This document shows, piece by piece, positions 2,622 through 38,880 of a DNA stretch of 64,000 bases (the stretch's first letter is position 1; each line of letters starts with the position of its first letter). Made by a program: the position numbers and the translations under genes. A model generated the notes under the pieces. That model was not told the origin of the DNA and did not search any database. It worked only from the letters and a program-made list of their open reading frames with translations. The DNA comes from Phoronis australis (taxonomy: Eukaryota > Animalia > Phoronida): positions 187,893-251,892 of the forward strand of contig NMRA01000153.1 of assembly GCA_002633005.1 (NCBI GenBank), written 5' to 3'.

Positions 2622-3236
2622 GTAAGAAATTAGTGTAATATAAATGACAATATAAAAATATCTTAAAACGGACAATCACCGCACAAATGAAAAAATTCAT
2701 ATTGATTCAACGTTTCGTCTATTCATTAGACATCATCAGGTTATAAACAATAAGACATCAAATTTCGATATACCAGCCATGTTACATCCATGAAGTGAAA
2801 TGAGTGAGGCAAAAAACTGATGTAATTATAAATATCTTGTCTCTTAAAGTAAAGGCTTAAGCGGAGGCATTTTTGATAGTATGTTAAGTAAAAATACAAA
2901 TCATATCCGATCATGTAAGATACATTTGTCTGTGTTAATTGGTCTATTGAGGGTAAAACGTTAGTTTTCCCCAACAACGTTCTAATTTGTCGTGCTGCAA
3001 CTACAAGGTTTTGCTTAAAAAATTCATTAGATTGCAAGTTAGCTTAATATTGTGTCGTGTACAGATAGGACAGTCAAGAAAGAACGAAGTGCCTCTATAA
3101 AGCAAACAAAGGCAGGCAACTAAAATCGATCACTTGATGTTATACAAACCATGATGTGGCTAGATTACTTAGTTATTCCTTGTGTCACAGCTCCAGTCTA
3201 GACCTAGTAGTGATGGATCCATATTCTGTTGTATAT

Positions 3237-3319
3237 TGTGCAACTCATGACCAGCTCCTGGTTGTGATGTGATGTTTATTAACACAATAACACAATCAGG
3301 AGCCAGAAATTAGAACACA
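3237..3319 (-). ncRNA. Singleton pre-miRNA-like hairpin at the distal end of the cluster
   Basis: CUGGCUCCUGAUUGUG/CACAACCAGGAGCUGG long stem with basal AAUUU/GAGUU and UGUGU/GCACA pairs. Confidence 0.5.
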
Positions 3320-3323
3320 GGCT

Positions 3324-3400
3324 GACGCCAAGGGACTGAAATTAAAGGGAGCTAATTATAATGTAGACATTAACTCAGCGAACACTTCAATACTAGCGAC
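3324..3400 (-). ncRNA. Diverged family-2-like hairpin d
   Basis: GAGUUAAU/AUUAGCUC and AUUGAAGU/AUUUCAGU stems; flanking similarity to copies a-c. Confidence 0.35.
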
Positions 3401-3512
3401 ACCTATTGCGAGTTACTCATCAGGTGCAAAGTAAACAGATACACTTATTTGTGGAATTGTTAAGTCTAGAAGCCGTTTTCCAATGAATGTGAACACAGAA
3501 CTCAGGTGATAT

Positions 3513-3596
3513 TGGGTGCACCTATTTTTGGAACTGTCAACACTAGAATCTGTCCTAACTAGTGCTTGGCAGTTGCCAAATACAAGTGAACAACTA
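3513..3596 (-). ncRNA. Family-1 pre-miRNA-like hairpin A; 5p UUUGGCAACUGCCAAGCACUAG (3580-3559)
   Basis: Stem UUUGG-C-AACUGCCAA-G-CACUAG / CUAGUG-UUGACAGUU-CCAAA, 12-nt loop, lower stem, CNNC (CACC) about 17 nt after predicted 3' cut. Confidence 0.6.
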
Positions 3597-3660
3597 AACA
3601 TCGTTATAAACAGTTAATAACTTTCAGCAACCAATATGAACTTAGAAATACCGTGATCAC

Positions 3661-3735
3661 TGAGTGTTTGGAACTGCCAAAGGTAGAATCAATATCACTA
3701 GCAATTGACCATTGCCAAATTAAACTGGACATCCA
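3661..3735 (-). ncRNA. Family-1 hairpin B (degenerate lower stem); 5p UUUGGCAAUGGUCAAUUGCUAG (3719-3698)
   Basis: Paralogue of A; first 12 nt identical to vertebrate miR-182-5p; deletion in the basal stem. Confidence 0.4.
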
Positions 3736-3829
3736 GACTTCATGTCATGGTCATTCGACTTATAAACAGATACAACTATCTACAAACTTGTACTGCGAAT
3801 TCAAACAAACATAGAAATACTGTGATCAT

Positions 3830-3912
3830 AGAATGCACTTGTGTTTGGAACAGTTAAGGCCAGAAGCTATTTAACTTGTGGTTGGCAGTTGCCAAATTAA
3901 AGTGAACACCCA
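3830..3912 (-). ncRNA. Family-1 hairpin C; 5p UUUGGCAACUGCCAACCACAAG (3896-3875)
   Basis: Paralogue of A with a weaker upper stem. Confidence 0.45.
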
Positions 3913-4043
3913 TACGTCCCAGTTTGATTTTATTATAAAATAGTTGAATTTGATGTGCTTTCATAGCTTCGTAAAAACTGGAGAGTTCGTTATTGCTTAA
4001 TATCAATAGTACTGATACTTGATGAGAATTGTGAAAGCGAAAC

Positions 4044-4116
4044 ATGGCAGTACCATCAAAATGAACAGTGCTAATTACAATCTCATCAGCACTGAAGCCT
4101 TTAACACTACAACCAC
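4044..4116 (-). ncRNA. Family-2 pre-miRNA-like hairpin a; conserved 3p arm AUUAGCACUGUUCAUUUUGAU (4075-4055)
   Basis: CAGUGCUGAU/AUUAGCACUG upper stem plus G:U-rich lower stem. Confidence 0.55.
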
Positions 4117-4159
4117 ACTATTGAGATTGAGAGTCATTGTAACAGTAATACCTAAACAT

Positions 4160-4380
4160 CAGGGCTTGGAATGACCAATGACAAAAAACGCGGAAACTTT
4201 GAAACTTTTACGGCCCAAATCATGCCCGATAACCATCCTTGAAATGGTCAATGTGACAAAAAACCGGGAGGACTAAAAAAAAAAAAAAACGTTACCACCA
4301 TCAGTAGCATGCGTCTGCGTCCTTTTAGCTCGCCCGTCCACTCCCAACCCACACATTTTTGGCTGCAGAGCGGTAGTATT
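4160..4380 (-). mobile_element. hAT-like MITE, inverted partial copy of 11506-12014, truncated at the assembly gap
   Basis: Near-identical reverse complement of about 11783-12014, starting with TIR CAGGGCTTGGAAT. Confidence 0.9.
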
Positions 4381-4387
4381 TGTCACT

Positions 4388-4541
4388 NNNNNNNNNNNNN
4401 NNNNNNNNNNNNNNNNNNNNNNNNNNNNNNNNNNNNNNNNNNNNNNNNNNNNNNNNNNNNNNNNNNNNNNNNNNNNNNNNNNNNNNNNNNNNNNNNNNNN
4501 NNNNNNNNNNNNNNNNNNNNNNNNNNNNNNNNNNNNNNNNN
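4388..4541. other. Assembly gap (N run)
   Basis: 154 Ns. Confidence 1.
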
Positions 4542-4644
4542 CTTCTCATGATGGTAATTCGATTCGTGAGGAGATCAACAACTCTCTAAAATTGTATAGC
4601 AACTACAACCGTAAAAATATGACAATCATTGAGGATTCTTAAGT

Positions 4645-4714
4645 GCTTGGCACCAGTAATATTGATAAGCGATGAGAAGTGTGAAAGCTACTCATCACAC
4701 CGGATTGTGCTAGC
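4645..4714 (-). ncRNA. Family-3 weak hairpin (near-identical copy at 5877-5946)
   Basis: GUGAUGAG/CUCAUCGC stem; the gtgaaagc motif (plus strand) recurs near 4031, 4884 and, as atgaaagc, 5357. Confidence 0.3.
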
Positions 4715-4936
4715 CTGTTTTTTATCAGCTATCCACAACCTTGTGTAATGAACAGAGTCCACTAGTTAAGAAAAGATGGCAATAAGGTATTGCTTAAATG
4801 AAGACTAATTATGAATGATGAGATTAATAGCCTGTCAAGCCTAAAAATTAACATCCACAGAACTCATGAGGGTCATGGTGTGGTGTGAAAGCTATAACTT
4901 CTACATTAAACACAAGCATAGGAATACGATGGTCAT

Positions 4937-5016
4937 TGATTGCACTTGTGTTTGGAATTGTCAAGGCTAGAATCTATTTAACTAGCTTTTAACAATGCCA
5001 AATTAAAGTGAACGTA
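4937..5016 (-). ncRNA. Family-1 hairpin D; 5p UUUGGCAUUGUUAAAAGCUAGU (5002-4981)
   Basis: AUUGUUAA/UUGACAAU and GCUAG/CUAGC pairing; CNNC (CAUC) about 18 nt downstream. Confidence 0.55.
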
Positions 5017-5062
5017 CACTTCCCATGATGGTCATTCCATTCATAAGCAGATAAGGTGATCA

Positions 5063-5147
5063 TTGGGTGCACCTATTTTTGGAACTGTCAAGACTAGAAT
5101 CTGTTCAACGAGTTCTTGGCAGTTGCCAAATCTAAATGAACACCCAA
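5063..5147 (-). ncRNA. Family-1 hairpin E; 5p UUUGGCAACUGCCAAGAACUCG (5130-5109)
   Basis: UUGGGUG/CACCCAA and CAUUUA/UAGGUG basal stem; AACUGCCAAGA/UCUUGACAGUU upper stem; CNNC (CACC) about 18 nt downstream. Confidence 0.6.
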
Positions 5148-5208
5148 ACTTGCCACGATGGTCATCATTTTTAACAGATAATTACTATGAACAAGTTGAA
5201 AAAACATG

Positions 5209-5275
5209 CCAGTATTATCAAAATGAACAGTGCTAATTACAATCTCATCAGCATTGAACATTTCAACAATACCAC
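5209..5275 (-). ncRNA. Family-2 hairpin b; 3p arm identical to copy a (5237-5217)
   Basis: 14 consecutive pairs GUAUUGUUGAAAUG/CAUUUUGAUAAUAC (3 G:U), then CAAUGCUGAU/AUUAGCACUG. Confidence 0.62.
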
Positions 5276-5521
5276 CAAGCTATTAAAATTGAGAATCATC
5301 GTAATATTATTTAAAAACTGAAACACTAATGATGACGATGCATGTTGAGCGCACCTATGAAAGCTACTTATTACTCTAGTTTTTGTTGCCACATGGTTAT
5401 TGACTATTTACTTTTACATCCAATTTCCGAAATAAGTTAACTGTCAAAGTACTAGTGATATCACTGCAAAAACTGTCCAAGAATTTCTGCATTGAATACG
5501 AATATGGAATACAATGGTTAT

Positions 5522-5603
5522 TGTGTGCACTTGTGTTTGGAAATGTCAAGGCCAGATTCCATTTAACTGGCTCTTAACAATGCCAAATTAAAGTGAACAC
5601 ATA
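5522..5603 (-). ncRNA. Family-1 hairpin F; 5p UUUGGCAUUGUUAAGAGCCAGU (5587-5566)
   Basis: GCCAG/CUGGC is a compensatory change relative to GCUAG/CUAGC in D. Confidence 0.6.
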
Positions 5604-5687
5604 CACTTCTCATGGTGGTCATTGTATTTATAAGGAGACGACTACAAATTTGTACAGTGAATACGAACATAGAAATATAGTGATCAT

Positions 5688-5771
5688 TGAGTGCAGTTAT
5701 GTTTGGAACTGTCAAAGCTAGAATCTAATGTTAACCAGCTGTTAACAATGCCAAATCCAAATGAACACCCA
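5688..5771 (-). ncRNA. Family-1 hairpin G; 5p UUUGGCAUUGUUAACAGCUGGU (5755-5734)
   Basis: UUGUUAA/UUGACAG, AGCUGG/CUAGCU and GGGUG/CACUC pair fully only on the minus strand (G:U). Confidence 0.58.
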
Positions 5772-6015
5772 CACTTCTCATGATGGTAATTCGATTCGTG
5801 AGGAGATCAACAACTCTCTAAAATTGTATAGCAACTACAACCGTAAAAATATGACAATCGTTGAGGATTCTTAAGTGCTTGGCACCAGTAATATTGATGA
5901 GCGATGAGAAGTGTGAAAGCTACTCATCACACCGGATTGTGCTAGCCTGTTTTGTATCAGCTATCCACAACCTTGTGTAATGAAAAGAATTCACTAGTTC
6001 ACAGTTGACAAAACT

Positions 6016-6089
6016 TGACAATATTATTAAAGTGGGCAGTGCTAATTAGAGTATTATGACCACCACTGTACAGTTCAACACCACTGCCA
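6016..6089 (-). ncRNA. Family-2 hairpin c; 3p arm AUUAGCACUGCCCACUUUAAU
   Basis: UGGCAGUG/UAUUGUCA, UGUUGAA/UUUAAUA and CAGUG/CACUG pairing on the minus strand. Confidence 0.58.
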
Positions 6090-6262
6090 TGCTATTGAGA
6101 ATTAAATTTGTGGCTAGACATGTTTTGTTGGAATTATTAAGTCTAGAAACAATATCATTTACACTTGACAATTGACTTTTGAGTGATAAATCTACCATAT
6201 GAAATTCACGGAAAATTGACCGGTGTTCTTGTTGAGGTCAAGAAATTGTTGAGAATTTATTG

Positions 6263-6334
6263 TGCGTAGAACTACACTGGAGTGTGCCGACATTAAATCT
6301 CAGCCAGCACATCTTCAGTGCAATAAACTACACA
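6263..6334 (-). ncRNA. Hairpin e (family-2-like loop); 5p arm contains UAUUGCACUGAAGAUGUGCUGG
   Basis: About 20-bp upper stem plus UGUGUAG/CUACGCA basal stem; first hairpin after the donor at 6447. Confidence 0.58.
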
Positions 6335-6447
6335 ACTGCTGGTGCAATTAGAAACACCCCACAAGACTTAAAATTTCTGTCAAAGTTGCTGTTAAAGACC
6401 CATGACTGAAACTCAATAGTTTCGTTGGTGGACGCCGAGTTACTCAC

Positions 6448-6548
6448 CTTGACTACATTGGATCTCTGAGGAAGCTTGTGCATCATAATTCTCTGACCAG
6501 TTTTCCCACATAACTCTGAGTGTACATTGCTCAGGAAAAGAGGTGACT
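6448..6548 (-). ncRNA. Putative first exon of the antisense host (pri-miRNA) transcript
   Basis: Starts at Inr TCA(+1)GT (6548) and ends at AAG/GTGAGT donor (6447-6442); the ATGs it contains open only short frames. Confidence 0.55.
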
Positions 6549-6660
6549 GATTTTGGGGTATCATTGCAGTGTTTAAATAGCCCACCAGTGTAGGATCCCT
6601 CTCTGGAAGTAACCAATCAGCAAGCATATCACGTTGTCCAATCAAGCGAAAAATGATTGG
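6546..6660 (-). promoter_or_regulatory. Pol II core promoter: Inr TCAGT (6550-6546), TATA TATTTAAA (6579-6572), three CCAAT boxes (6613-6617, 6638-6642, 6656-6660)
   Basis: TATA starts exactly 31 nt upstream of the Inr A; CCAAT boxes at about -65 to -112. Confidence 0.65.
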
Positions 6661-6840
6661 TCACAGGCATCAGTCCTGGAGAGGGAGTTCAGGCCTATTC
6701 ATGGATTTAACTGGACAGGATTGCCTGGGGGATTAGTACCCACTGGGATTAACAATCAACATACAAACTGTTGGCATCTGTCTACCTCATACTGTAGCAC
6801 ACCTCATAATTACCTTAAATTTGTTGGGGGTAGTGTACTG
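6661..6840. promoter_or_regulatory. Repeated GGATTA module copy 1
   Basis: Core atggatttaactggacaggattgcctgggggattagtacccactgggattaac; GGATTA at 6730 and 6746. Confidence 0.5.
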
Positions 6841-7429
6841 AAAGTTTACTTTGAACTAGTAAATTTTCAAAAAATGACATGTTTGGTACAAATTCATGCA
6901 TCTTTGTAAGGTCTTAATACTGTAGGTTATCTTTTATGTGATGAATACAACAATAACAAGGTTTTTATGGACTTGTTCTATTTCCTTGGCCATAAATTAG
7001 TTTTGAAATATTAAAGATTTGATATTTTTTATTTCTCACTGTTTTCATTTTATTTTCAAATCTGTTGGTTAAAATAATCATGTAAGATACTTTTTCGTAA
7101 ATAAATTCTATCCTAAATGATTTAAACTACAGTAAATGCAAGTGTTGATTTTGCTTTTAGTAGCTTTTAAGCTAGTTAAATAGATTTATGTTTTGTGTGT
7201 CTAATAAATGAAGTTGGCATCCAAAAAGCATACATTTCATTTTAGAATAATAATCCAATCGTAATTTTCAATTTCAACATTTTTGTTCTGATCAGTATTG
7301 ATTTTAAGATCTAGTGCTTCCAAGTATTGTTAGATTTGTCTCTGTTTAAAACAAATAGATGTTGGTGTTTGTGTTTTTTTATCTTTATCTTTTGTAATTT
7401 TTTCTCGTACCACAGACTAAGAATGGTGC

Positions 7430-8550
7430 TGTGATTTGGGCGTAATATTCATTTAATTTCTGGGTAGGTTCTTTTAGACTAGATTGTTTGCTATCAAATT
7501 AATGAGTTAAAGACACTGTTGAACTGTCAAATATTCGTCTTCTTGGTTATTTTATATCTTTACTTGGTTTAACTAAAGCAATAAAAGTGCTTGAATATAT
7601 ATATATACAAATCAGTAATATTCGTATCGTGATATTTTTAATCTTTTGTTACTGGACATATTGTTATCAATTTTCAGGAAACAATGTATTTTTGAATATC
7701 TTGAGTACAGAATAAAATAGATGGTCTTCCATAATTGTTTTGTTTTCATAACCCAACTTGTTGCATCATATTTATTTGTTGTGTTCTCTTCACTTAATTA
7801 TATCTCGCAACTTATAAAATATGAACAAGTTCTGAACTATACTTAAAAATTATAAAATGTTATCACTGACAGTTTTTTAATTATAAATTGTAGTATTTTG
7901 TCTCTCGTTAAACTTTCACATGTTTTACTGCTGAATATAATTATTTTTATTTTCTGTTCCTATGTGGAAATGATTTTGTCCATGAAATTAGTCCTGCTTG
8001 TTTTTGTTACAAGATGCTTTCTGAATTTAATTTTTTGGTAATTCTCTTAAATCATGGCCTTGTATTTGTTGAGTGAATGGGTGTAATATTGTTTTAATTT
8101 CTGGATTGTTTTTTGGGCTATAATTGATAGCTATCAAAGTAACCAGTAAAAGACTGCTGGTTGGTCAAAATATATTTTTTCTTGGATTATTTTGGAAATA
8201 AAACCACCTAGAAATTCATAACTACTGTTTAAGATTTACAGATTTATAATATTCATGCCATTAATTTTAATCTTTTCCTACTGAATGTATAATTATCAAT
8301 TTACAGAAAACCCTATATCTTTAAATATCTCAGCACATGATAAAGTATATCATCTCCCGTGTTTTTATGCAAGTAACCCAACTTGCTGCATCATTGATAT
8401 TTATCTGTAGTGTTTTCTCCACTAAGTTATGTCATGGTATAAGTTTTTAAGGTGTAAATTTATGTTGTTAAACTTTCACATGTTTCACTACTGAATGTAA
8501 TTTATGTTTATTTTCTGTTGGTTGTAAGATGTTTTCTGAATTTAACATTT
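7430..8550. repeat. Old direct duplication (about 7430-7960 vs 8080-8550)
   Basis: Shared blocks gtaatatt..ttaatttctgg, gctatcaaa, taacccaacttg..gcatcat, gttaaactttcacatgttt..ctgaat. Confidence 0.7.
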
Positions 8551-8822
8551 TCCTACATTACAGTGTGAAACAAAAAGAAACAACATGCCTAAAAAGCAAT
8601 TAGTAAAGCACATTTTTTTTCTTTTCAATTATACTGGGCAATCATATTTTGAAGACCCAGTGTTTTTGATTTAAGACAGTTAAACTGATGCATGATTTAA
8701 AAGATATTTTTTACCACAGCACTTTTACAATTTTTACCCTATCTCCCTTATCCAAATAACCCAATTCCCCTAACCATGTCTTTTCAAATTTGTTCCTTGT
8801 TGTTAAATTAAGGAGGTTCTCT

Positions 8823-9010
8823 ATAACCTGTTTGATCTATTGACTGGTATGGTGAGGGACATTATCCCACTCAGTGATTTAACTAGGCAGGGTTACCCAT
8901 GGGGATTAGTGCCTGCTGGGATAAACTGCCAACTGGTGGTGTGTAGTTGCAGCTGTCTATTTCATGCTGTTAACCTGAGAATAGTTTCTTTTCATTTAAA
9001 AAGGTGTAGT
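8823..9010. promoter_or_regulatory. Repeated GGATTA module copy 2
   Basis: gtgatttaactaggcagggttacccatggggattagtgcctgctgggataaac; GGATTA at 8903. Confidence 0.5.
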
Positions 9011-10740
9011 TAACAGCACCTTGACTAATAAACAAGCTATTGTTAAGAATTGTTTGGTGTTTATATACATGTCAAGATCACTCTTATGTTTATTATGTTT
9101 GTATGGGTATGGTATCCTGATGATTGTGGCCTGTTGTACTGGACATCCAAGTATCAATATTCAACAGGAAATTTTAAATGGGCAAAAGAATTAATTTGGT
9201 TTATCATGTTGCCCTAGTGACGTAGTTGTAGGTTTTTGTGTGCTTATCTTGGCAGAGTGTAATTTCTAAACTGAAAAATTATTAAATCCGTCTAGTATAT
9301 CAGCTCCTATTTGAATACCAAGTTCAGTGAGATGGCTTCAGTATCAGTATCTTATTAGAACCATTGCAACAAATTTATTTTAGTAAAACATATTATCTCT
9401 AGTACATGTTTTTGTGCATTTAGTAAAGGGCAAGTGAAACTTAGACTTATTTTTTGTCAGTGCACTATGGGGACACCTATTTCTATGGATTAAGCAATTT
9501 TTTGGTTTTAATATTTTAGGTTACATATTGGTGAAAGATCTACTTTTTAGTTTTGTTTATTGCTCACAGAGTATCACGCATGTAGTATTGTTTTTATTTA
9601 AATTTCTTGAATATTTGAAAAATATGTATTTGTGATTATTGAGCTATAAGTATGTATTCTAGTAAAATTCATGCTGAGAAAAATACCTTGGAACAGTAGG
9701 GCAAATTAACTTTATTTGTAAATATTAATTGAATAAGCTGCATTATTTTGCAAACACTCACATTGTATATCTATCCCTAATAACTAAACAATAAATAACA
9801 AAAAGATTTTAAATTGTAATGTAACTCTGATACACCTTATTTTTCATATTATTGATTTGCTCTCCATAGTGTATAAAAAATTCCCCACGATTCTTAAGTT
9901 CTGAGTTTGCTTTTAATGCAAGTTGTTTGTTACACTGTATCAGGGCACACAAAATTGGAAACAATTTTTTTTAAAATAGGAATTCAGTTAAAAGCCTGTC
10001 TTTTCAGTGGTATTAATCAAATTAATCTCGTTTTGAAGGCCTAGCTTGTGCGTTGCAGCAGTTACTTGGATTTTTATTATTCATTTCCATCCTATTTCAG
10101 TGGTTAAGTGTTAAAGATATGTAGGACTTTATTGACATGTCTTTAAATTTAGCTAAATATCTACAATTAAAGTATAGCATTTAATTCAGAAAAAGTGATA
10201 TTTTCTGTAAGCAGAAATTCATTAGGATTTAATTGTTGACTTTATACAAATATATGCTTATTGTTATTGTCTCTCCATAGTCATTCAAAAGTGGGTGAGA
10301 AACATTCCTTATAGTTTCTTGAAATGCATAACAGGTAGTATTCATTTTAAAGCTTTGTATGAATCCATTCAGCCATTTCCGAGATATGATCTTCAGAAGT
10401 GCCAATTTTTTACATTTTTTATGTAGTTTTACATTACCTTAGTATTGGGCATCCTCTTTGATTTGGTTGCCAGATCAAGGTAATTTTGTAAATGTTTAGT
10501 ACAACAAGTTTAATGTCTAATACTTGGATTTAAGTCCAGAAAATGCTATTTCAGGGGGTAAAACTCCGTATTTGATTGAAGACAAATGCCTTTTTCTTAT
10601 GACAATTTAGGGATTATTTTAAACTATTTTCCCAATAACTTGTATTGAAAATTATTAACTGGACCCCAATTTTTACATAGTTTTTTATCTATATTGGAAA
10701 CTGAAGAAATTTTGCTGTAATTTGTTTGCTTGATAAAGTT

Positions 10741-10880
10741 TTGCCCCATCCCTGGATTCAGCTAAGCAAGGTTACCTGTGGTGGATTATCCCCTGCTATG
10801 ATGAACTGTGACTAATTGACAGGTGACATACTGACAACTCCTGGGAATTACCCTTCAGTTGAAGAAGGTGTTGTATATTA
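10741..10880. promoter_or_regulatory. Repeated GGATTA module copy 3
   Basis: ctggattcagctaagcaaggttacctgtggtggattatcccctgctatgatgaac; GGATTA at 10783. Confidence 0.45.
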
Positions 10881-10989
10881 AAAATTGACATTGAAACAAC
10901 AAACTAAACAAGAATGACAGGTTCCCTGTCAACCTGTAAATCATATTCTTCTTTATTTTTCTTTGGAATGACTAAGTGTCCTAGTTTTC

Positions 10990-11066
10990 AATGATTATCT
11001 TGTCATTATGCAAGATTATTACAAAGATAATGATTATCTTGTCATTATGCAAGATTATTACAAAGA
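10990..11066. repeat. Perfect 39-bp tandem duplication
   Basis: aatgattatcttgtcattatgcaagattattacaaaga x2. Confidence 0.9.
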
Positions 11067-11505
11067 CAATTGGCTAATGTGTGTAGTTAAGTGGCAAATA
11101 TTATTTGTCAGAAACCTCTTCTCTTACAGTATATTTTTCTTGTTCATTAACCTATCATATAATCACTAACCATTATTTTTTGTATGAAATTTACAAAGTC
11201 TATTTTTATTCTACTGGCTACAAAAGCATGTCTGTAATTTTCTAAGGTCTTTTAGCTAATAACTCCACTGTCAAAAATGAAGTTGTCATAATTCTTTGAC
11301 AAAAAGCAGTCTTAATTTTTGACAATTAAACTGTTGGGCTGGAAGGACTTAAAAGAAAACTCCAGATACTGTTTTGTAAGTAATGAAATAAGGAACTAGA
11401 ATTTACAAGTTCGGTGTGAAAAAAATGTTTTAAAAATTCAGCATCTAAATGAAAAATCCTGTTTTTATAAAAAATGTATAAAAATGGAATTCATTGCACA
11501 TAATA

Positions 11506-12014
11506 CAGGGCTTGGAATTTTCCGCGGAAACGCGGATTTCCGCTTTTTTCAAATGTGCTTTCCGCTTTTTTTTATTTTTTCGAGTAAAAAAATCGGATTT
11601 GATGTAAAATTTCCGTGGCAAATTCCTTTCTTACCACGGCGTTGCAGACGACGTTCACCTTGAAAAGCGGAAGTTGCTCTTTATGTTTCGGAGGAACGTA
11701 AATTGTCAACATTGCCGGGGCACCTGGGACAGCGTGGTGGGATTTTCAATGGCGTCTCGTGTTATTGTTAAGCGCGGCACCAATACTACCGCTCTGCAGC
11801 CAGAAAGTGTGTGGGTTGGGAGTGGACGGGCGAGCTAAAGGGACGCAGACGCATGCTACTGATGGTGGTAACGTTTTTTTTTTTTTTTAGTCCTCCCGAT
11901 TTTTGTCGGGGAAAGGTTCACATTGACCATTTCAAGGATGGTTATCGGGCATGATTTGGGCGGTAAAAGTTTCAAAGTTTCCGCGTTTTTTGTCATTGGT
12001 CATTCCAAGCCCTG
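11506..12014 (+). mobile_element. hAT-like MITE with 6-bp TSD
   Basis: 13-bp perfect TIR CAGGGCTTGGAAT/ATTCCAAGCCCTG; ATAATA on both flanks. Confidence 0.88.
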
Positions 12015-12058
12015 ATAATAAGATCCTGCGGGTTATTTAAGAAATCTGATAGTTTGTG

Positions 12059-12287
12059 CAAGACTTGGAATTTTCCTCTTTTTTAAAAGGATTTCCTCTT
12101 GTTTGATTTCCAATTTCTTCTTTTTGGCTCTTTATCATTATTTTGACTTGATTCATGCAAAAATGTTTATTTCAGTTAAATTTTACGACACAAAATATGT
12201 ATCTTTCACACAAGCCCATTTATTTGTGGAGCGATACATCACCCGGGAGATTTTCCTCTTTTTTGTCATTGGTCATTCCAAGCCTTG
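12059..12287 (+). mobile_element. Older, shorter relative of the same hAT-like MITE
   Basis: Ends CAAGACTTGGAATTTTCC and TTGGTCATTCCAAGCCTTG match the neighbouring element's termini. Confidence 0.65.
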
Positions 12288-12778
12288 TTGGTATGTTAAA
12301 TATACTATTATCTTGAATGGGTTTACGCTCGAGCTTCTGAAAAATTATGAAAAATATTCCAGTCATCAGCTGTGAAACCGAACTCAAAGGGAGAGGGGTA
12401 GCCAATATTAGAAATATCTGTGGGCATTGTTGAAAATTTATGTATTAATATTTCAAAAATATTGATTGTTAACTCAATTAAAAAGAATGGAATGCTCTTG
12501 TTTTTCCTGCATTTAACCTGATGTAACAGTATGGTTTGGAATACAAAAGGACAAAAATGTGTCAGTGCTACTGACATATAATCAATGTTATCTTTTTTGA
12601 AGAGCTTGTGTCTTCCACCATTTTTTAAACACAGTCTATTCTAAAGTCCCAGTTTGCTGATTCATTGTTACACCATGTTGAGGAGATACAACTCTTGGCC
12701 TTGTCATTGTTAATTCTAAGTCATTGCTAAAACTTCACTGCAAGATAATATGAGATGCACGTGCGGCACAGAGGTCTG

Positions 12779-13179
12779 TGCTGGGTTGCATGAAACAGTC
12801 CCAAATAGGGACTCGACTAAGTTGCCTAAATCTTTGACCTATCTGTGTCTTTGTTAACTCTCAGATGGAATCTTTTTCTACCATTTCATCTTTAATATGA
12901 CCTCCTCATCCTGAGCCCTGAATTCAATGAAAACAAATAGGGACTTAGTCCTTAAGTTAGGAGTGTTGCATGAAAAGATCCCCAAATAGTTTCATTAATA
13001 ATGCCAATTCAGTGTTGAGTTCACTCTCAATTTTTTTATCAAAGTCAAAAGTTGACTACATAATGAAACTAAAATAGCAGAAGAAATGACAATCGGTGTT
13101 TTCACAAGTCCACAAATATGCAGTAGATTTAGGGAACTTAGTTGAGTCCCTATTTGGGACTCTTTCATGCCACCGGGCA
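12779..13179. mobile_element. Harbinger-like MITE (partial relative at about 42950-43335)
   Basis: About 55-bp imperfect TIRs (..gcatgaaacagtcccaaatagggactc..); CTG on both flanks. Confidence 0.7.
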
Positions 13180-13866
13180 CTGATGAGTAATATGAGTGTA
13201 GATACTGATGAGGGATACATGTGTTTCTTTTTCCTGTTTTTGCTGTAGCTTAACCTTGCTTTGTCTCTGCTGCAAGCCAGAATTAACTATATCTCAACTG
13301 TTGACATGGACATTGCGAAGCACGCTTTTTACTGTAATTTTCTACCTATTTAACTCACATTCATGTATAGCTGTCAAGAGATTTTTTGTTCAATGTCTCA
13401 AGAAAATTAAATATAAAATTTTGTCCAATTATTGGCTTGGTTTTTACAATGTAGATATTTAAAACAAAATTTTTCTCAGCGAGTTGTGCGCCCATATTTC
13501 TTGTTAAATAGCCTCAAAATCGTGCCCAATGCAATCTTAGAAGGGTTGGCCTTCCTGTTGAGTTGGCGACATTTCGACATTGCTTTTTATTTGCCAATGC
13601 CCTCGTCAGTTTGAGAGAGGAATAACTTTTCTGTCAGGAAATGGAAAATTTGCGTCGCTCAGTAACCCAGTTTAGAATTTGTGTTTTAGAGCAGCTTTAA
13701 GGGATAATTTTCCTTTAATTTTCTTAAGGAAAATATTAAAAAGTCTGACTCCTAAAAGTGCTTTCATAATCTTAGACAACTTGGTTCTTACAAAATTGTG
13801 AAGTGGACCAAAGTCTGGAGGGTACTGTATGCTGTCTGGTGTGGGAAGCTACAGAAAGTTCCACTG

Positions 13867-14050
13867 ATAAACCTGTTTGATCTATTCACTGGTATTGTCA
13901 GGGGGTTATTAACCCATTCATGGATTTACCTGAGCAGGGTTGCCTGTGTGGATTAGTACCTGCTGGGATAAATTAGCCTCAGTCTAGGTGTTGGCACTGC
14001 ACATTTCATGCTACTAAGCACTGGGTAATTGATTATCTTACACTTCAACA
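13867..14050. promoter_or_regulatory. Repeated GGATTA module copy 4
   Basis: atggatttacctgagcagggttgcctgtgtggattagtacctgctgggataaat; GGATTA at 13950; 5' flank closely matches copy 2. Confidence 0.5.
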
Positions 14051-15599
14051 GCTCTGCTTAATGATGGTTGGCTTTAATAATGGGCCAATGAAACTTACTG
14101 TAATGAGGCTTAGAATTACATGTCAACTCAGTCATAGCTCATTGTTGTAGCTTGCCTGTGTTTTCTTGGAGTTTTCACAAGGTTATTAAGGACTTTGGAA
14201 AAATTGACCAATTTTGGCCAACTTCAGAACATGATATCTCAGATACAGCTGGTTGAAGCCTTCAGATACTATAATTTATGCACTGTTCTTTAAAATGTTT
14301 GTGGGCATTAGGGGCTATAAAGAAATAGGACTTTAAGGATTTTATGAAAGAACTAAAAAGTTGCATAAAACCAAAATTTTACAGCATTTTAGAAATCCAT
14401 TACGGCATTTTTGAAATTTCATCTGGACATTTATTTCAAATAAAATTTGGTCGTGTTAGGGATACCAGTGTTTTACTTAGATTATATTCCTTGTGTTAAG
14501 TTTTACTAAATAGACATGGTGAGATGAATCGGGTAATGTATTACTGGTGTTAAGTAGAAAATGCTATGTTGAAGGGCTTTCTACTTTCTGAATATGTGTT
14601 CTTTTACTTAATTAAAATTGCTGATATTGTCTATATACACACACTTGTTGATAAGGTCCAAAGAATGTTGATATACTCAATTTTGTTGTTTTTTGATAAA
14701 GCTACTGTTTCTCACAACAATTGTTCATTAAAACAAATAAAACAAAGTAAAACAAAAGGAATCTGTGAGACTCCTGGTAACGACAATTTTACCTTTTCTT
14801 GATCTCTGTCTCACAACAAACTGGGCCAAATTTTTGTAATTTCGCGAGAACAGCAGTCGATTATTAATGTTGTTACTGTTAATGTTGATCTGTATTATTA
14901 TTGTTACTTCCGTGTGGCGTCTCAGTTTTATCATTTTGAAATGTCTAAATTTGTTATTTCATGGGTCTTGTTTTATTTGCTCACTGTACATATTTATGCT
15001 CGAATTTATTGTATTTTATATTTCACCTAATATGTATCATATAATTAAATGTTGTTTTTGTTCGAGATAAAAATTGTTCCTGTTGTGACATTTCTTTTTG
15101 GCCCAGCAAACATAATAAATCTTAAATAAACAAATAAAAAAATAGTTACAAAATTTAGTAGTCAACAGTGAGGACTATTTGCTGTTGTGAACATCATATA
15201 CTTCTTTATTTGACTAGTCATCTATTGTCTGTGAATCTGTTGTGATATTGAAGCCTTTTCTGTTTGTTTAATGGTATCTTCATATGGCTTCACCATGTTA
15301 CTTACAATGTAGATATGTTGGGCCTTAATAAGTCTTGGCATCACCCAGTTACATACAGTGGATGGAAATTTGTATGTTTGTTACACGAGTTAAATCTTGG
15401 CTTCATCTAGACTTACACTAGAGGACAATTAGTGTGTTATGTTATAGGTAAATCTTAATTTAATATGGATATCTAACATGTATTTTTCTTTACAAAAGCA
15501 TTTTCATGATTTCAAACAGGTGATTTCTCCTGCTTGTTTGGTAAAGTTGTGGATACAACCCCCAAGTTTCTAACAAAATAATTTCAGCATGCATGAGCT

Positions 15600-15790
15600 G
15601 TTTCCCTATTCAGTGTCATCATAAGGTGCTGTATCCCAATTTCTGATTTAACTATGCATGGTTACCCATAGGGGATTAGTTCCTACTGTGATAACTGGCC
15701 AACAGATTAGGTCCTCAGGGGAGCATTTGATGTTGTGAACTATGGATTAATTGTCTGTCACTTAAAGAAAGTTGGTTTACTGAATGCTGG
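15600..15790. promoter_or_regulatory. Repeated GGATTA module copy 5
   Basis: ctgatttaactatgcatggttacccataggggattagttcctactgtgataac; GGATTA at 15673 and 15744. Confidence 0.45.
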
Positions 15791-17397
15791 CCTTTGAAGC
15801 AATAAATTAACCAGTGTGGAATATAATTTTGATTTTATTCTTCTGTGGATGGGGTAAAATCTCTAGTCTGGGGCAGTCCCTAAAATTTGGGACACCGAAA
15901 ATCAAGCCGTAATTGAATCTCATTGATTCTGAAAATTGGGACATAGTAAATTTTTCAGTTTTCTCAAATATTACACACACGCTTTGTGTCAATAAAATTT
16001 GGTAATTGACTGCAGGTCACAAAATTGTTGAAAATAGTAGCCAATGTCACATATTCCTGGATCCCCATATAGTGTGTAACAACATCCAGTTGGATGATTG
16101 TGTGTCGGCGAGTGTAATTCTTGGAAAAGATGATATTGGCTATTTCTAAAATTTGGAAACTGCTCGACCTTAAGCCAAATAGGAAATTTTTGACTGTACC
16201 GACTCACTCTGTACGAAAAATAAAGAAAGTGACATTTCAATGCATGTTAAATAAAAAGTCTTCCTTTTTTGTTTGAGTCATACCTGTTGCCCGCTCACTT
16301 ATTTCACATAGCAGTAAGTGAAAAAATAACATCAGGTTTCTATTTTTCAAAGACAGATTGCTCAGCGCGAACCAAGCCAGTAATAAAATAACATTTTCTT
16401 AATGTTTTAGTTTTGTTGGAATTTGATAAAAGAGATTTTCCGCTTATCTGCCATATTGTATGCTAAACATATGAAGAATTATCATATCAATAATTGAAAA
16501 TAAAACTGATATCCTGTAAAACTCATGCATAATGAAATCACAATTTGGCAGTGAATTGACTGTTTATGTTTTTTGTGAACAGTGTGTTTTCTCTAAGCTA
16601 AGGACAATGTCTTGATGAGCCTGGCTGGTGACCGACAGACGGAAGCAGGCGACTTGTTCTAACCCATGCCTCGATTGTGTCCCTGTCCTTACGATTCTTA
16701 ACCAGATTGAACAACAGTTAGTCGGTTCCCACTTGTTTTTTCTCCCGTTTTGTGTTCGTACTGAGAACTGCCTTGGTGTGACATGGCAATTGAAGCACGG
16801 GTTACTGAAAAGAGATTGACAACAAACTGATAGAATGAAATTGATATTTTTTATTTTTCGATTACCGTAATTCTTCACTTATTTTAAAGGCTGAATACTT
16901 TGCTTCAAATGATAATTTTGACAAAATAAAATTTCACCCCTACCATATTGTGGGCTAAGTAGCTGAAGAATTACGGTTTCTGTACGTTGTTTCAAATAAT
17001 CAAACTTTTGTTTGAGTTTGCTTTATGTCCAGAATGAGTTCAAAGTAAGATAAAATAAGAATGAGCCAGTTTATTCATCTAAAAAGTAACACCTATGAGT
17101 GCCATTTCTATAACAGTGTTAACCATAGAAAACAGAAAGCGTTGATTTGCCCTATTTCATGACTCAGTTTTCTATGATGCGTCGTAAAATTAAATCAACA
17201 ATTGACATTCGCCCTCTTCTGAAGCCTGATGTCCCGAATTGATGCCTGTACTGTATTACAAAAACAGCGATGACATTAACTAAGAACTACACAGTTCAGA
17301 ACATTCACTTTACTACTTTCAGGAAGTGCTTTGATATGCACAAGTTGTTTATATAAATGACATTGCCATTAAATGAAGTTCATTATATAAATTGCAG

Positions 17398-17543
17398 GAG
17401 TCGATACCCTTTGCGGTGGTTGGCTCGAACCAAATCATTGAGGTTAAAGGTCGTAAGGTGCGAGGTCGCATGTACCCTTGGGGTGTGGTTGAGGTTGAGA
17501 ACCCTGACCACTGTGACTTCATCAAGCTGAGGACGATGCTGAT
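17398..17543 (+). CDS. SEPT2: SEPT2-like septin (gene 1) exon, septin unique element
   Basis: ttgcag/gtaagt; [49 protein letters not shown]. Confidence 0.97.
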
Positions 17544-18822
17544 GTAAGTATGATATGTCGACAGCTGTCTTCATCGGACCACTTGTGTAAAACCTGTAAT
17601 GTAGTTGTGTACAACATTAATACTATAGCACCAAATCAAATGTATTTCCATGTTCAAATTTTGTTCCACAGCTCCCTCTGCAGACAAAAGTTTTGAAAAG
17701 TTGTGGGCATTCGCAGTGATGTTAGAGGTCCTTGAAAATGAAATGTGTCTTTGGCAATTGTTTTTGTACAGAATCGGTGAGATTTACCGTACTCTTGTTA
17801 TGTCAGTGGGAGCTTGAAATCCATGAGGTGCCGCAAATAAAGTTAGAGAAATGCCTGCATTCAGGAAAGAACATGGGTCCCTTATCACACAACACCCCTG
17901 TGGTGATGAACTACTTTCTGATCTCAATCTATTCATCAGATGTCAAGTAAAGGGACGTTGGTGAATATAGAGTCACCCATTGTACATTTGACCTTGAACT
18001 TGGCAGTGTAAGAGACATTCATTAATCTTGAAGGCTCTGACACACCAATCTTTTTCTCAGAACGTGTGCAAGCCCATCATAATAGTTTGATGAAATGGGT
18101 TGGAGACGGGCAAAAATGTCCAACTTTGCCCAAAAGCTTGCCTCAAGTAGCGCATGGTTTTTATTCTGAGATTGAACTGCACTTAGTTGGTTGCAACTAT
18201 GTTCACAAGATTGTGCTGAGAACTACCTTGGTGTGACGGGGACCCTAAGTGGTTTCACCATCTAGCATCACTGTAAAACCTCCCCACTTTAAGACCCGAT
18301 GTGGCCTACAGCTGAATTTTTTTTCGTTTTTTTGTTGTAAAATATATCGGCAAATGAATACTTAACTGTGTTCAAATTTTTTGTGAAGTCTACAATGATG
18401 CTAGAAAATGTTTGAAAAACTAATGGGCACTCAAGACAATGTAAGAAGACCTTGAACTATGAGAAAGTGGTAGTTTTGGCAATTATATTTGTCCGAAATT
18501 GGTTACGTTTAACTGTATTTTTTGTGGTTATGATCGCATAACCTGTACAATTAGCGGAAAATTTTGTTTCTAATTCCTTGTTCCACTCTGCTGATTTCAA
18601 TGATTATATTCAGTAGTTATAATTTACTTCTTGCATTGAATTCTGCGCATGTTGACTTAATTGAAACAAAGTAAAAAGTTTGAAGGTAATTTTACAAGCT
18701 GTTAGCGTAGTCGGAAATTAAAAAAGGCTTCTGTCGTAGAATGTTTTAAACCAGTAGTGAACCACTCAAAGTTGAACTTTCCTGTTTAGTTGCAGTGCCA
18801 CCTGATGGTGTTACAATATTAA

Positions 18823-24059: not shown

Positions 24060-24241
24060 ATGAGGGTCCTGGCATTGGACTTGTTGGTGCTCGTGTTATG
24101 AAGTGGGGGTCCCTACATTGGACTTGTTAGTTCTTGTGTTATGAAGTGGGGGCCCCTACACTGGACTTGTTAGTTCTTGTGTTATGAAGTGGGGGTCCCT
24201 ACATTGGACTTTTTAGTGCTTGTGTTGTGAAGTGGGGGTCC
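24060..24241. repeat. 43-bp minisatellite (resumes at 25565-25700 after an insertion)
   Basis: Unit tgaagtgggggtccctacattggacttgttagttcttgtgtta. Confidence 0.9.
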
Positions 24242-25564
24242 TTTTTGGCCCCGCCACTCGTAAATCATACTCAAATTGGCCACCACACACCTAATCATGA
24301 CGGGGAAACTTCACTGCCACACAAAAATCGCTACTAAAAATGATCGCTAGTAAAAATGATCGCTAGTAAAAATGATCGCTACTAAAAATTATCGCTAGTA
24401 AAAATGATCGCTATTAAAAATGATCGCTAGTAAAAATGTTCGCTAGTAAAAATGATCGCTAGTAAAAATGATCGCTAGTAAAAATTATCGCAGGTAAATT
24501 GATTGCAGGTAAAATGAATCGCAAGCAAAATGAATTGCAAGTAAAAATGATCGCTAGTAAAAATGATCGCTAGTAATTATGAATAATTACAAGTCACACG
24601 GCACCTTTCGCCGTTTGTAGATCGAAAGGGAAAAATAATAATTTTACAATGGGATCTTGCATTGTGCCCCCTGTCAAACATATTATTCAATCCCCAACCC
24701 CATTTCGTACCCTGTTTCTGCCTTGTTATTCGACAATGCATATAAACTTAATACAGCCGGGGACCAGGCAGCGACCTCGATACGAATTTCCTAAAATGGG
24801 AAAGTGCCAGGGCTTGCTAATGAAGTAAGAAACAATAAGATTTCTGCTTCATTCATTTTATCGTGTCCGAATTTACAAAAGACATTGTGAATTATACTGT
24901 AGGGCGTGACATCCAACTGTTTAATCAACCATAGCCCTGCGCCAACATGACGGTATTGAATGTTAACCAGTCTCAGATTCGTCTGCATGGACTGGATTAT
25001 ACATCGTCTGCTACGCCGGCCAACGCCAATCCACTATCACTGATTTATGTTTAGGAAGACGATATCAAAGGAAGTTTTGTTACACGAATTAGTTTATTAC
25101 GTCTAAAAATTTCACATATTTTTTGTTCTATGTTTGTTACTTTGAGGATAATTGAATTTTAACACTGTTTTTTTGTACTCAAGTGCGACAGAGATCACAC
25201 TATGCCGGACACTTCATTGCCAATTTGTCTTGCGAATTGTCCTTTACCCAGATACTTCCACTACATCATGCTAGGGTTAGGGTCTTGTCTATAATGAGCA
25301 AACTGCAACCAATTACATGTAATTTCCAAATTTTGCCTGGGGAATGTCTCCCAACCCCCCCCCCTGATGGGAGGATCTCACTTCATCCCATGCTCGCATG
25401 TGGCACCAGGTTCCACATCCGCGTCGAATGTTCACCACCACGCTCCTTTCGAAACCCAGACAATAGGGGGATCCCACTTCTCATATTCACGTGTGGCAAC
25501 GGGCTTTGCACCCCATTTTGGCCATTTACCACCACGCTCCTTTCAAAACCCAGGGGAAACACTG
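24242..25564. mobile_element. Truncated insertion interrupting the 43-bp minisatellite
   Basis: hAT-like end caggggaaacactg on the right; no matching left TIR seen. Confidence 0.45.
24323..24574. repeat. 16-bp tandem repeat
   Basis: Unit aaaaatgatcgctagt, about 15 copies with variants. Confidence 0.92.
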
Positions 25565-29741: not shown

Positions 29742-32700
29742 TTAAAGTACCTATGAACCTGCCTTACATCACGAAATAGCACTTTTGATTTTGGCAACTT
29801 ACTATAATGAAATTGGTCTGATATTGTTTTTTAGTTAAAATTTGAGATGATATCGGGGCTTTGAAAGAACTTCAGCTTGTTATTGCTTGAGACCAGGGTC
29901 TACAAGTTGGCTTGTCATGGCATGTCATTTTGTGGGCCAAGTATGGTCTCGATGAATAATAAACAGTCAGTTCCTAGCAAATTCAGAAGTCACTTCTCGT
30001 CTGTGTAAGAGAAAAGTGGAGACCAATATTATAGGGGTAAGTTGTTTAAATCAAAAGTGCACTTCTTTTTATTAGGGCTTAAAACTAGAAACTTGTCATG
30101 GCTGACTGTTTGATGAAAAAGATAGCTAGGGACTTTGATGCTTTGTATAATTTAGTTGAACCATATTTAATGGTAGAAATTGCAAGTGTATGTCGTTTGT
30201 TATCTAATAATGTGGTGCTGTTGAACATAACTTCCAACTCAGAATTGGTGATTATTTTGTGACTCTTCTCCTTTACTAAAGTTTTCTTCCTTAAAATGCT
30301 ATCTATTGCCATGTCACGCGGAAAAGGTAAACTCAAATGGGTTTCAACCTTAACTGATTTTGAAATTTTGAATTATGTCAACTTGTGTTGTGTTTGTGTA
30401 TTTTAAAAGCTTTTAGTCTTTGACTTCAAATTTAATTTTCTTAATAAAAATACATCAGAAATACTCATCTAAGATATTGCTTCCTAAGTACATAGTTTAA
30501 ACTTACCAGTTGTTACATATTCTTTCTATAAATGTTATTGGGAACAGACAAATGCATGGGGGTAAGCGCCATCTATAGAAGAATATGTAAAATAAACTTA
30601 AACTATTTCAAAACAGTTATGTTTCCTGAAATCTTCACTTTAACTTAACCGAGCCATAAATTGAAAATAGGATAGTAGCAGGCTAGAACAAATGTTAGAT
30701 TTTAATAACATGTAGTCTACCTATTGTCTTCTTCATTATATTATTGACATTGACATTAGTAGATTTTGTAAGTAGCTGTTGCAAAAGCTTTTTGTATGAT
30801 CTGACTACTACTATTGTAATAAATAATAAAATTTATACATTTAGTTCTGTTGTTCTTTTCTGTGGCTTTGGACCTTCATTGTCTTTCGCGTTCATTTTCA
30901 CTAAAAAAGCACTGAGCTTGATTACCGTAGTTCCTCTCATAGCAACAGTATAGTTCCCGGGAGATGGCTCCTATTACCCCTTCCTAAGATTGATGTATCA
31001 GTGTTTGTTTTAAAGTCTCATCGATGTAGCACACAATTTGACAAACCAAATAAATATTTTATTTTTTTCATGATGGACCAATAGTGCCAAACTGGTGCTT
31101 TTTGCATTTGTAACTTTTTACTGCTACTTGCCATCAGGAATTCATGTGGGGACTCACATGAATGTTAGAAGCTTCTAAAAATTGAAAAATCTTTTTTGAC
31201 AATAATTTTTGTCTGAATTAATTAGGTGAGAATTTACAATAGTATTGCATCAGTGAGTGTCTTTAATTTTAAACTTAAAATTCTCAAGTAAATGGGAATT
31301 GACTGAGGATTGCTTGTTAGTGATTGGTTTTAGCCACTTTAAGAAGTGGCTTAAGACGAGCCTTCCAACTCGAAAATCAATGTTTTGACTTGAACCATTA
31401 TGAAAATGGTCTCAAATTGTTCCTTTGTCAAATTGGCAGTGATTTCAGGGCTTCAAATATTGCTCGAGATCAAGCTTGACAAAAACGGTCATTGATGTCT
31501 GCCTATAATGAGTTGCCAGTTCTTTACAGAAATCACTTAATAGGGAACAAGTCGAGACAAATGGTACGTAGTCTAAAACAAAGGTTCGCTTATTCAGAAC
31601 TCCTGTTTATGGCTGCTTTAAGTTCACCAATAATATTACTGCTTAATAACAGTTCCTGTGTAAGTTCTGAAGTTTCATCGAAAAACATTTACGGCAAAAT
31701 ATCCTGAATTTAGGTTCCCAGCCGCTTTGGCTTTGAACTTTGAAAATTGTTAGAAGGTGGTTTTTGTTCTCACATTTTGGTTGACAAGAAATGCAAAAGA
31801 CTTTTCCTGATATAAACATGCACTGTAAGCCAATTGTACAGGTTTCGAAAACGAGTTACACATGCATATTTGGTCTTTAAACACATCATTATGAGTTACA
31901 ATAAAGTGCTAGGAATAGGACGGTACCTTCCTTGCTAGGAAAACTTGTAGTCATTGGCCTTGTTTTAGAAATGTTGGGGTGATTCTAGGAATCGTGTTGT
32001 TAAATATCAGGTCCACAGATTCTCCACAATTTTATTCAACTTTCTGCCAATGGAGCTGTAACCATCAGCACAGCAGTAAAACTTTGCTGTTATTGAAAGG
32101 TCGAATATAGTTAATGCAGGCGAGAAAAAACTTACTGAAAGGACGGCTTCAACAAATAACATGAGAAACTGCAATGGCAAGAAAATAAGACTAGAGAACT
32201 GCTTGACCAATGTTGCAACATTGTGAATAAATAGAGCGAGATTCAAGTGTCCTGTGTAATCCAGGACTTACCTGACGGCCATAGTAGTTTGGCGGGTGAA
32301 ATTAACCCACAATGACAAACTATTATAATGAGCATCGTGTGAAGAATTAATGACAAAACTGTCAATAGTTCTCTATTCTAGAAATCGTTTCTCATGTATG
32401 GAACAAGACGAGGCAGGTTTTTTAACTACAAGTGGCCTTAATCAAAAGTTGTTTTAATAGAGGCTGCATGTTTATTACGAATGTTATTTTCAACCGTGTG
32501 GAGTTTGCTCTTGTTTTATCAAAGAACATTTAAGGTTATGTAGGAGCTTAGAAAATATGCAAATTTGGCCAAATTTGGTACATCACTATTTCAAAATGGC
32601 TCGTCAGATTCTTATGAAACCTCGACATACTATGCATTATGCACTGTTCTCTAAAGTACTTTTGCATCAGTGGCTATCAAAAAAAATTTTTTATAATTTT

Positions 32701-38300: not shown

Positions 38301-38880
38301 AATTCACTTTATTGCTGCAATAATTGCATAAATATATCTTATTCAGTGAGGCGTGGAATATATTGCAAGCAGTTTATCCCGTTCAATCCGCCATGTGACC
38401 AAAAAGATGGCAAATTGAATGGGATAAACTGCTAACTGTAAGTATTGTAGACAATTTTTATCAAGAAATTCATTTGTTACTTATTGGTTTTAGGATTTAT
38501 TTTTTCTTCATATTGGTCAAATGTTTATTAATTGAAAAGTATGTGGCCTCGCTTGTGCTTAAAAGCCTACCAGAGGTCTCCATCAAGATAAAAAGCAAAA
38601 TTTGTAATAACAGTAGTTTCTTCATATTAGAACACAATGTGGCGAAACAGTAAAATTTCATTTCATGGAAAATTTCAACAAGAGTAAGCAAGAAGACAAG
38701 TTTTCACCACCAATTAACTCACACTGAAATTTTGAAATTTTTGAAACGTATTAAAAATGTACACTGAACATTTGAAAAATGAAAAAATGACAACTTGTAT
38801 TTTGGTTCGACTTTAAGGCAATTTCACCAAATAAATTCTTCTGTTTACTACCACTATGGTAATAACAAATCAGTGAAAAT

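Follow-up and report, generated by a model that had tools for sequence, protein, structure and literature searches.

A putative antisense microRNA cluster with a recurrent MIR-96-type seed in a septin intron of Phoronis australis

A window of 64,000 nucleotides (nt) from the phoronid Phoronis australis (assembly GCA_002633005.1, contig NMRA01000153.1) carries, within an intron of a SEPT2-like septin gene, a tandemly duplicated array of hairpins, seven of which share the invariant 8-mer AUUUGGCA on the strand opposite to the gene. Considering the folds and their neighbours, we propose with moderate confidence that the array is a fast-evolving, lineage-specific cluster of seed-sharing microRNAs (miRNAs) processed from the minus strand, with guides that would begin at the A of the 8-mer; summed over all the readings in which miRNAs are made from it, the array is very probably a real miRNA cluster. 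Positions below are those of the window, and the seven hairpins with the 8-mer are called copies A to G in order of position (Table 1).

The hairpin array

The first-pass annotation of this DNA had described seven paralogous hairpins. The seven units lie where it placed them, with the U residues that it took as guide starts exactly at 3580, 3719, 3896, 5002, 5130, 5587, and 5755, but they are only half of a larger array. The array comprises 14 hairpins of five families in 3238-6334, a span of 3.1 kilobases (kb), all co-oriented on the minus strand, with A to G forming one family. The seven further hairpins belong to four families, and all of them were more stable than shuffled sequences (z-scores -2.0 to -5.7). 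In a blind scan of the minus strand (at least 24 base pairs, z ≤ -3), 10 strong hairpins were found in 3200-6400 and 6 in the remaining 60.8 kb, a density of 3.1 versus 0.1 per kb, though the 10 come from only five families. In the arms of the seven further hairpins, 39 G·U against 9 A·C oppositions were counted on the minus strand, and a CNNC motif stood at +15 to +17 in six of the seven and in all four families (background 0.10 per three offsets). Their mature starts were chosen by hand, guided by the folds and by similarity to known seeds. With these starts, two hairpins of the array have exact MIR-92 and MIR-67 seeds, and two further seeds are MIR-29-like; the seed is identical to that of a conserved family in the miRNA table of the annelid Platynereis dumerilii in three of the five array families, for which the rough chance is 0.002 with registers chosen post hoc.

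Read along the minus strand, the order is 92-type, AGCACUG, AGCACAA, G, F, AGCACUG, E, D, and AGCACAA, followed by an assembly gap, a repeat element, AGCACUG, C, B, A, and 67-type, an order suggestive of a mixed module that was duplicated repeatedly. Because the duplicate at 4542-4767 breaks off at the start of the 5' flank of G, an eighth copy of the A-G type may be hidden in the gap. This 226-nt duplicate beside the gap differs from 5774-5999 at six positions and represents either a recent duplication or a second haplotype. The repeat element next to the gap, at 4158-4386, is an abundant interspersed repeat with a second copy in opposite orientation at 11779-12016 (92% over 238 nt), and the copy inside the cluster attracts hundreds of RNA reads from other loci.

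The invariant core reported for copies A to G was borne out, AUUUGGCA being present on the minus strand in all seven. Its plus-strand form, TGCCAAAT, has 7 sites in 3574-5756 and 1 more same-strand site in the window. In every copy the MIR-96-type seed lies at the 5' end of the minus-strand 5p arm, at the base of the upper stem, and the predicted precursors are 56-58 nt long. Pairs of copies are 60-88% identical over the unit; A and E are 88% identical, and their flanks hardly align. A covariance model of A to G found no further intact copy in the 64-kb window, where the next minus-strand match scored 18 bits against 68-95. The statement that the rest of the arm diverges was half right: 5p nt 1-15 differ between groups of copies and are identical within A/C/E and within D/F/G, giving three 5p types by their 3' half, namely A/C/E (type I), D/F/G (type II), and B. 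Within the two groups, these 15 nt show 0 changes versus 5 in their 15 partner bases, which is the pattern expected if the minus-strand 5p arm is the guide. The tree of the seven copies was unresolved, with no starred branch.

Stability was scored for A to G in 90-nt windows against 300 dinucleotide shuffles. That each copy folds back was confirmed for A, D, E, F, and G (z -2.3 to -5.7) and not for B (+0.3) or C (-0.3), so that 12 of the 14 array hairpins beat their shuffles; in C, the seed-arm G:C pair probability was 0.08. The family structure pairs 83% of cells versus 27-46% in slid controls, and the compensatory change noted earlier between D and F (GCUAG:CUAGC to GCCAG:CUGGC, pair 34-52) is present. 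Copies B and C and two decayed relatives appear to be dying copies. The type I 5p sequences (3566-3581, 3882-3897, and 5116-5131, minus strand) are self-complementary (UUGGC...GCCAA) and could fold on themselves, which is the preferred fold of C.

Table 1. Features of the septin intron, the hairpin array and its surroundings
Feature	Position	Strand	Details
Host intron of the SEPT2-like septin gene	2622-17397	+	Pfam Septin profile 166-198 then 200-247 on either side
Septin exons	near 129-249, 710-844, 1311-1428, 2519-2621, 17398-17544, and further 3'	+	Five match Pfam Septin in order
Hairpin, MIR-67 seed (Pdu-Mir-67 3p)	3238-3318	-	Predicted 3p UCACAACC... (3267-3246); z -5.4; CNNC +15
Decayed relative of A-G	3412-3510	-	3' arm kept; without AUUUGGCA and without fold; 15 bits with model R1
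Copy A, predicted pre-miRNA, type I	3524-3581	-	5p 3581-3560 AUUUGGCAACUGCCAAGCACUA; z -3.4; CNNC +16 (A-start register)
Copy B, weak hairpin, possibly decaying	3664-3720	-	5p AUUUGGCAAUGGUCAAUUGCUA; 8-nt deletion in 3' lower stem; z +0.3
Copy C, weak hairpin, possibly decaying	3841-3897	-	5p nt 1-16 as in A and E; 3p diverged; z -0.3
Hairpin, MIR-29-like seed variant	4044-4116	-	Predicted 3p UAGCACUG... (4073-4052); z -4.2; minus -29.6 vs plus -11.1
Assembly gap	4388-4541		154 N; duplicate 4542-4767 ends where the 5' flank of G begins
Hairpin	4681-4762	-	Predicted 3p UAGCACAA... (4712-4691); z -5.2; CNNC +17; within 226-nt 97% duplicate of 5774-5999
Copy D, predicted pre-miRNA, type II	4948-5003	-	5p AUUUGGCAUUGUUAAAAGCUAG; z -4.5; CNNC +17
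Copy E, predicted pre-miRNA, type I	5075-5131	-	5p AUUUGGCAACUGCCAAGAACUC; z -3.1; CNNC +17
Hairpin	5203-5281	-	Predicted 3p UAGCACUG... (5235-5214); z -5.5; CNNC +16; minus -29.6 vs plus -11.4
Copy F, predicted pre-miRNA, type II	5533-5588	-	5p AUUUGGCAUUGUUAAGAGCCAG; z -5.7
Copy G, predicted pre-miRNA, type II	5699-5756	-	5p AUUUGGCAUUGUUAACAGCUGG; z -2.3; minus -27.0 vs plus -11.9 kcal/mol
Hairpin	5913-5994	-	Predicted 3p UAGCACAA... (5944-5923); z -5.7; CNNC +17
Hairpin	6012-6093	-	Predicted 3p UAGCACUG... (6044-6023); z -2.0; CNNC +16
Second decayed relative of A-G	6100-6200	-	3' arm only
Hairpin, MIR-92 seed on 5p arm	6263-6334	-	Predicted 5p UAUUGCAC... (6325-6304); z -5.3; CNNC +16; weak Rfam mir-2076 match, E 0.24

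Register and strand of the predicted guides

The stem geometry suggests that the 5p arm of A to G probably starts at the A, one base upstream of the start given in the first-pass annotation. With the A start, the two sides of the lower stem of copy F measure 13 nt (5') and 11 nt (3'), and five of the seven copies have GUG at +3 to +5; the A start is preferred because both are obtained only with it. The 13/11-nt lower stem and the GHG rules come from vertebrate work. With this start, the invariant block coincides exactly with nt 1-8, and in the predicted register the MIR-96 seed (UUUGGCA, the A-shifted P1b/d type, with a UUGGCA core) is therefore present in 7/7 copies, while the A/U variation previously assigned to position 8 moves to nt 9, outside an invariant seed. 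Two MIR-96 paralogues of P. dumerilii with sequenced reads begin with the same eight letters, AUUUGGCA (PMC12257675, supplement 3), and seed shifting is described in section 14 of that paper. Guides starting at the U would instead have UUGGCA as seed, completed by either A or U at nt 8, and thus address two target classes. Pdu-Mir-96-P1 and the Rfam mir-182 consensus are both U-start UUUGGCA, and CNNC at +17/+18, correctly reported for A, D, and E only, fits the U start equally well; however, the U start leaves the invariant upstream A unexplained, gives a lower stem of 14/12 nt, and shifts GUG one base out of place, and we consider it unlikely.

The neighbouring hairpins suggest that A to G are processed from the minus strand, a reading favoured on three grounds: the interleaved neighbours, the distribution of changes within the subfamilies, and the match to known seeds. 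Several results weigh against minus-strand 5p guides in A to G. In A to G alone, 17 G·U versus 11 A·C oppositions were counted on the minus strand, the consensus energies are -12.4 (minus) and -11.1 (plus), and CNNC is found in 3/7 copies on the minus strand versus 5/7, at one fixed offset, on the plus strand, which also has UG in 5/7; a clear preference of the fold for the minus strand is seen in G alone. Copies B and C are no more stable than their shuffles. The longest invariant run among the seven copies reached p = 0.02 only, and covariation was not significant, two-sided changes in 5 pairs lying well above the slid controls yet being reached by 186/500 shuffles, and those in 7 cells by 72/500. 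Across all seven copies, nt 9-22 are conserved at 85% in the 3p arm versus 66% in the 5p arm, the predicted 3p arms begin with U in 7/7 copies, and duplex-end energies gave no support for 5p loading in A to G. Furthermore, three stranded long-RNA sequencing runs carrying the same species label (18-19% of each; tissue and selection not stated; none of the 4 runs listed was of small RNA) contained the GT-AG joints of the first four septin exons, which calibrate the library strand. Leaving aside the repeat element at 4158-4386, they contained no minus-strand reads in 3001-6500, and what few reads fell on the cluster were septin-sense, with a depth of up to 2.4. Primary miRNAs are short-lived and often stage-limited, and the blank minus strand is thus weak counter-evidence.

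The plus strand is thus the one observed to be transcribed, and A to G might be cut from it as intronic miRNAs of the septin gene, giving 5p guides UUUGGAA..., either by themselves or as mirror counterparts of products from the minus strand. The plus-strand folds are as stable as the minus-strand ones in six of the seven copies, nt 1-14 of the plus 5p arm show 85% conservation, and in a U-start register this strand has CNNC at +17 in A, B, C, F, and G, with NN varying, and UG at -14 in A, D, E, F, and G. Antisense loci are a recognised category of MirGeneDB (PMC6943042), and Mir-1990 of Platynereis is listed on both strands (PMC12257675, supplement 3). Nevertheless, copy G lacks a plus-strand fold, the interleaved hairpins are minus-strand in 7/7 cases, plus-strand processing would imply a star arm unchanged over 15 nt together with a guide variable at nt 8, UUUGGAA was not found among the mature sequences of the Platynereis miRDeep2 table, and the plus-strand CNNC and UG motifs may be one inherited event; processing from the plus strand is therefore doubtful. 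A broader scenario, to which we assign little probability, has the MIR-96-type hairpins read both ways, as antisense UUUGGCA guides and as UUGGAA mirror guides that come from the septin intron and bear CNNC and UG marks of their own, in an array that rebuilt four ancient bilaterian seeds (MIR-96, -92, -67, and -29) in one 3-kb transcript and amplified the A-shifted MIR-96 seed seven- to eight-fold. The array might also be a degenerate tandem repeat, a set of decayed and unprocessed fold-back elements, or an already dead cluster. Tandem Repeats Finder gives periods of 127 and 168 nt at the array, two copies lack a fold, another two have decayed, all Rfam families stay below threshold, and no minus-strand RNA was seen. 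However, five unrelated hairpin families of Drosha-like dimensions share one strand, their seeds are conserved, the hairpins have been kept while the flanks diverge, and no copy lies outside the cluster in the 64 kb, so that we regard an unprocessed array as very unlikely.

Relation to known families and clusters

Copies A to G are best read as a miRNA-type family with a MIR-96-type seed, in line with the first-pass annotation, which named expansion and convergence as alternatives. Descent from MIR-96 is unproven because likeness beyond the seed is mostly at chance and the Rfam models fail; we lean slightly towards convergence of the seed, with descent almost as probable. Platynereis has five MIR-96 paralogues in all (PMC12257675). 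Its two paralogues Mir-96-P1bx/P1dx and P1by/P1dy, as given in that source, resemble A to G in a 5p mature starting AUUUGGCA (8/8), in being tandem paralogues in a lophotrochozoan host, and in an unpaired first A. They differ in continuing with C and having GGAAU, which none of A to G do; a C after GGCA and a GAAU core occur in 5/5 Platynereis paralogues versus 0/7 predicted 5p arms. Compared by hand with Pdu P1bx over nt 9-22, A matches at 3/14 and D at 4/14 positions, and these two Pdu copies lie 1.7 kb apart, whereas the seven copies here are spaced at 130-1100 nt and mixed with other families (PMC12257675, tabulated entries). Copy B matches 7/14 nt after GGCA in Pdu-Mir-96-P2, and GAUUCUAG of the star of that paralogue occurs in the 3' arms of A, D, E, and G but about 6 nt out of register; with a chance of about 10% over five paralogues, the star match was not counted in favour of descent.

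No Rfam family reached its gathering threshold in the window, and at E ≤ 10 the only hairpin matches, all sub-threshold, were to mir-392, mir-2, mir-11, mir-2076, mir-2012, and mir-182. The mir-182 model (RF00702) scored best on D, with 14.7 bits versus a threshold of 71 and an E-value of 5.4, and gave no match for A to C. Copy B does agree with the mature mir-182 of the Rfam consensus over its first 12 nt, as had been noted, but B is the worst-folding copy, and the comparison with vertebrate miR-182 appears weak; neither this agreement nor the GAUUCUAG star match is significant. Since seed and arm fit and the rest does not, A to G would be expected to act like MIR-96 but are not filed as members of the family. 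In annelids, these seed families reportedly show ciliary and sensory expression. The hairpin at 6263-6334 resembles amphioxus MIR-2076 (RF04036) in having AUUGCAC near the start of its 5p arm, and differs in scoring 17.4 bits versus a threshold of 90; the two come from distant phyla, and the likeness is thus probably convergent. MIR-2076 is Branchiostoma-specific in table S1 of MirGeneDB 3.0 (PMC11701709). MIR-92 uses its 3p arm; the position of its seed on the 5p arm here points to convergence for at least this hairpin.

Clusters of this kind are already known from flies and worms, and the present array is likely a new example: it is compact, co-oriented, and tandemly duplicated, with conserved seeds and a diverged remainder, as are the mir-309, mir-310, and mir-959-964 clusters. 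The Drosophila mir-309 and mir-310 clusters combine ancient-family seeds with diverged non-seed parts, and descent and convergence may be hard to tell apart in them (PMC4238352); they have other seeds, belong to another lineage, and their expression is known. Drosophila miR-959-964 is a compact cluster opposite a host-gene intron (10.1101/013243), likened here by arrangement and not by sequence; it has six members in about 1.2 kb, with testis expression shown. In Platynereis, a Mir-29 same-seed label appears 48 times in the miRDeep2 table (PMC12257675, supplement 2), and at least 15 rows are non-canonical MIR-29-seed loci, tandem on scaffolds 13 and 24 and sequenced from early stages (PMC12257675). 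Like the present array, these are many tandem lophotrochozoan hairpins sharing a conserved seed and little else; they differ in having the exact MIR-29 seed, small-RNA support, and one seed class in the rows seen, compared with five classes here. No description of the present locus was found in the literature, supplements and MirGeneDB entries being outside the reach of the search. A full-text search with six predicted mature fragments found no paper (supplements outside its scope), and a full-text 9-mer search matched 269 papers, of which the 30 listed were all unrelated by title.

Host gene, surroundings and proposed scenario

The cluster lies antisense within the septin intron 2622-17397. 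Summed over the exons, the septin scored highest among 231 septins with Owenia (1236 of 1598), followed by Lingula (1206) and hemichordates (1117-1125), a comparison set that is biased because one of its two source searches used Owenia as query. The ranking points to a lophotrochozoan host, probably an annelid or a lophophorate and neither of these two species itself, and a deuterostome host was rejected on the lower hemichordate scores. The 2 kb downstream of the most 3' septin exon identified contain no UGCCAAA site. Just behind the donor site of septin exon 2, the intron repeats the final 62 nt of that exon (787-848) at 855-916 with 89% identity, and a second septin gene lies in tandem downstream (55646-63190, plus strand), its exon at 63053-63190 being about 65% identical to septin-2 queries. 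Elsewhere in the window, a near-perfect inverted repeat at 38363-38441 (z -10.4) is probably a small fold-back element, and an isolated stable hairpin at 29881-29958 on the plus strand (z -4.9) has no Rfam match at threshold. Minisatellites occupy 63726-64000 (30 nt), 24327-24576 (16 nt), 24073-24241 (43 nt), and 44638-44825 (56 nt), and at 7633-8551 the AT-rich intron holds the degenerate remains of an old duplication, offset by 515-629 nt.

We propose the following scenario for the hairpin array. The 3.1-kb array of 14 hairpins would likely be transcribed as one primary RNA antisense to the septin intron, which Drosha and Dicer would cut into miRNAs, with A to G giving 5p guides that start AUUUGGCA and share their seed with the A-shifted MIR-96 paralogues of annelids. 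The array may have grown by repeated duplication of a mixed module, selection keeping the seed while the 3' halves drifted into the three types A/C/E, D/F/G, and B. The predicted function is a high dose of repression, limited to a stage or tissue, on mRNAs with UGCCAAA sites, with the MIR-92-, MIR-67-, and MIR-29-like seeds acting alongside; by analogy with the fly and Platynereis clusters, embryos or gonad would be the most likely site.

If expressed, the array would represent an unusually large expansion of a MIR-96-type seed and a clean case for the question of descent versus convergence, which the work on the fly clusters calls hard (PMC4238352). Annotation with covariance models misses such loci entirely. 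As the array holds live, dying, and dead copies together with three mature types sharing one seed, related genomes could date the steps by which it arose.

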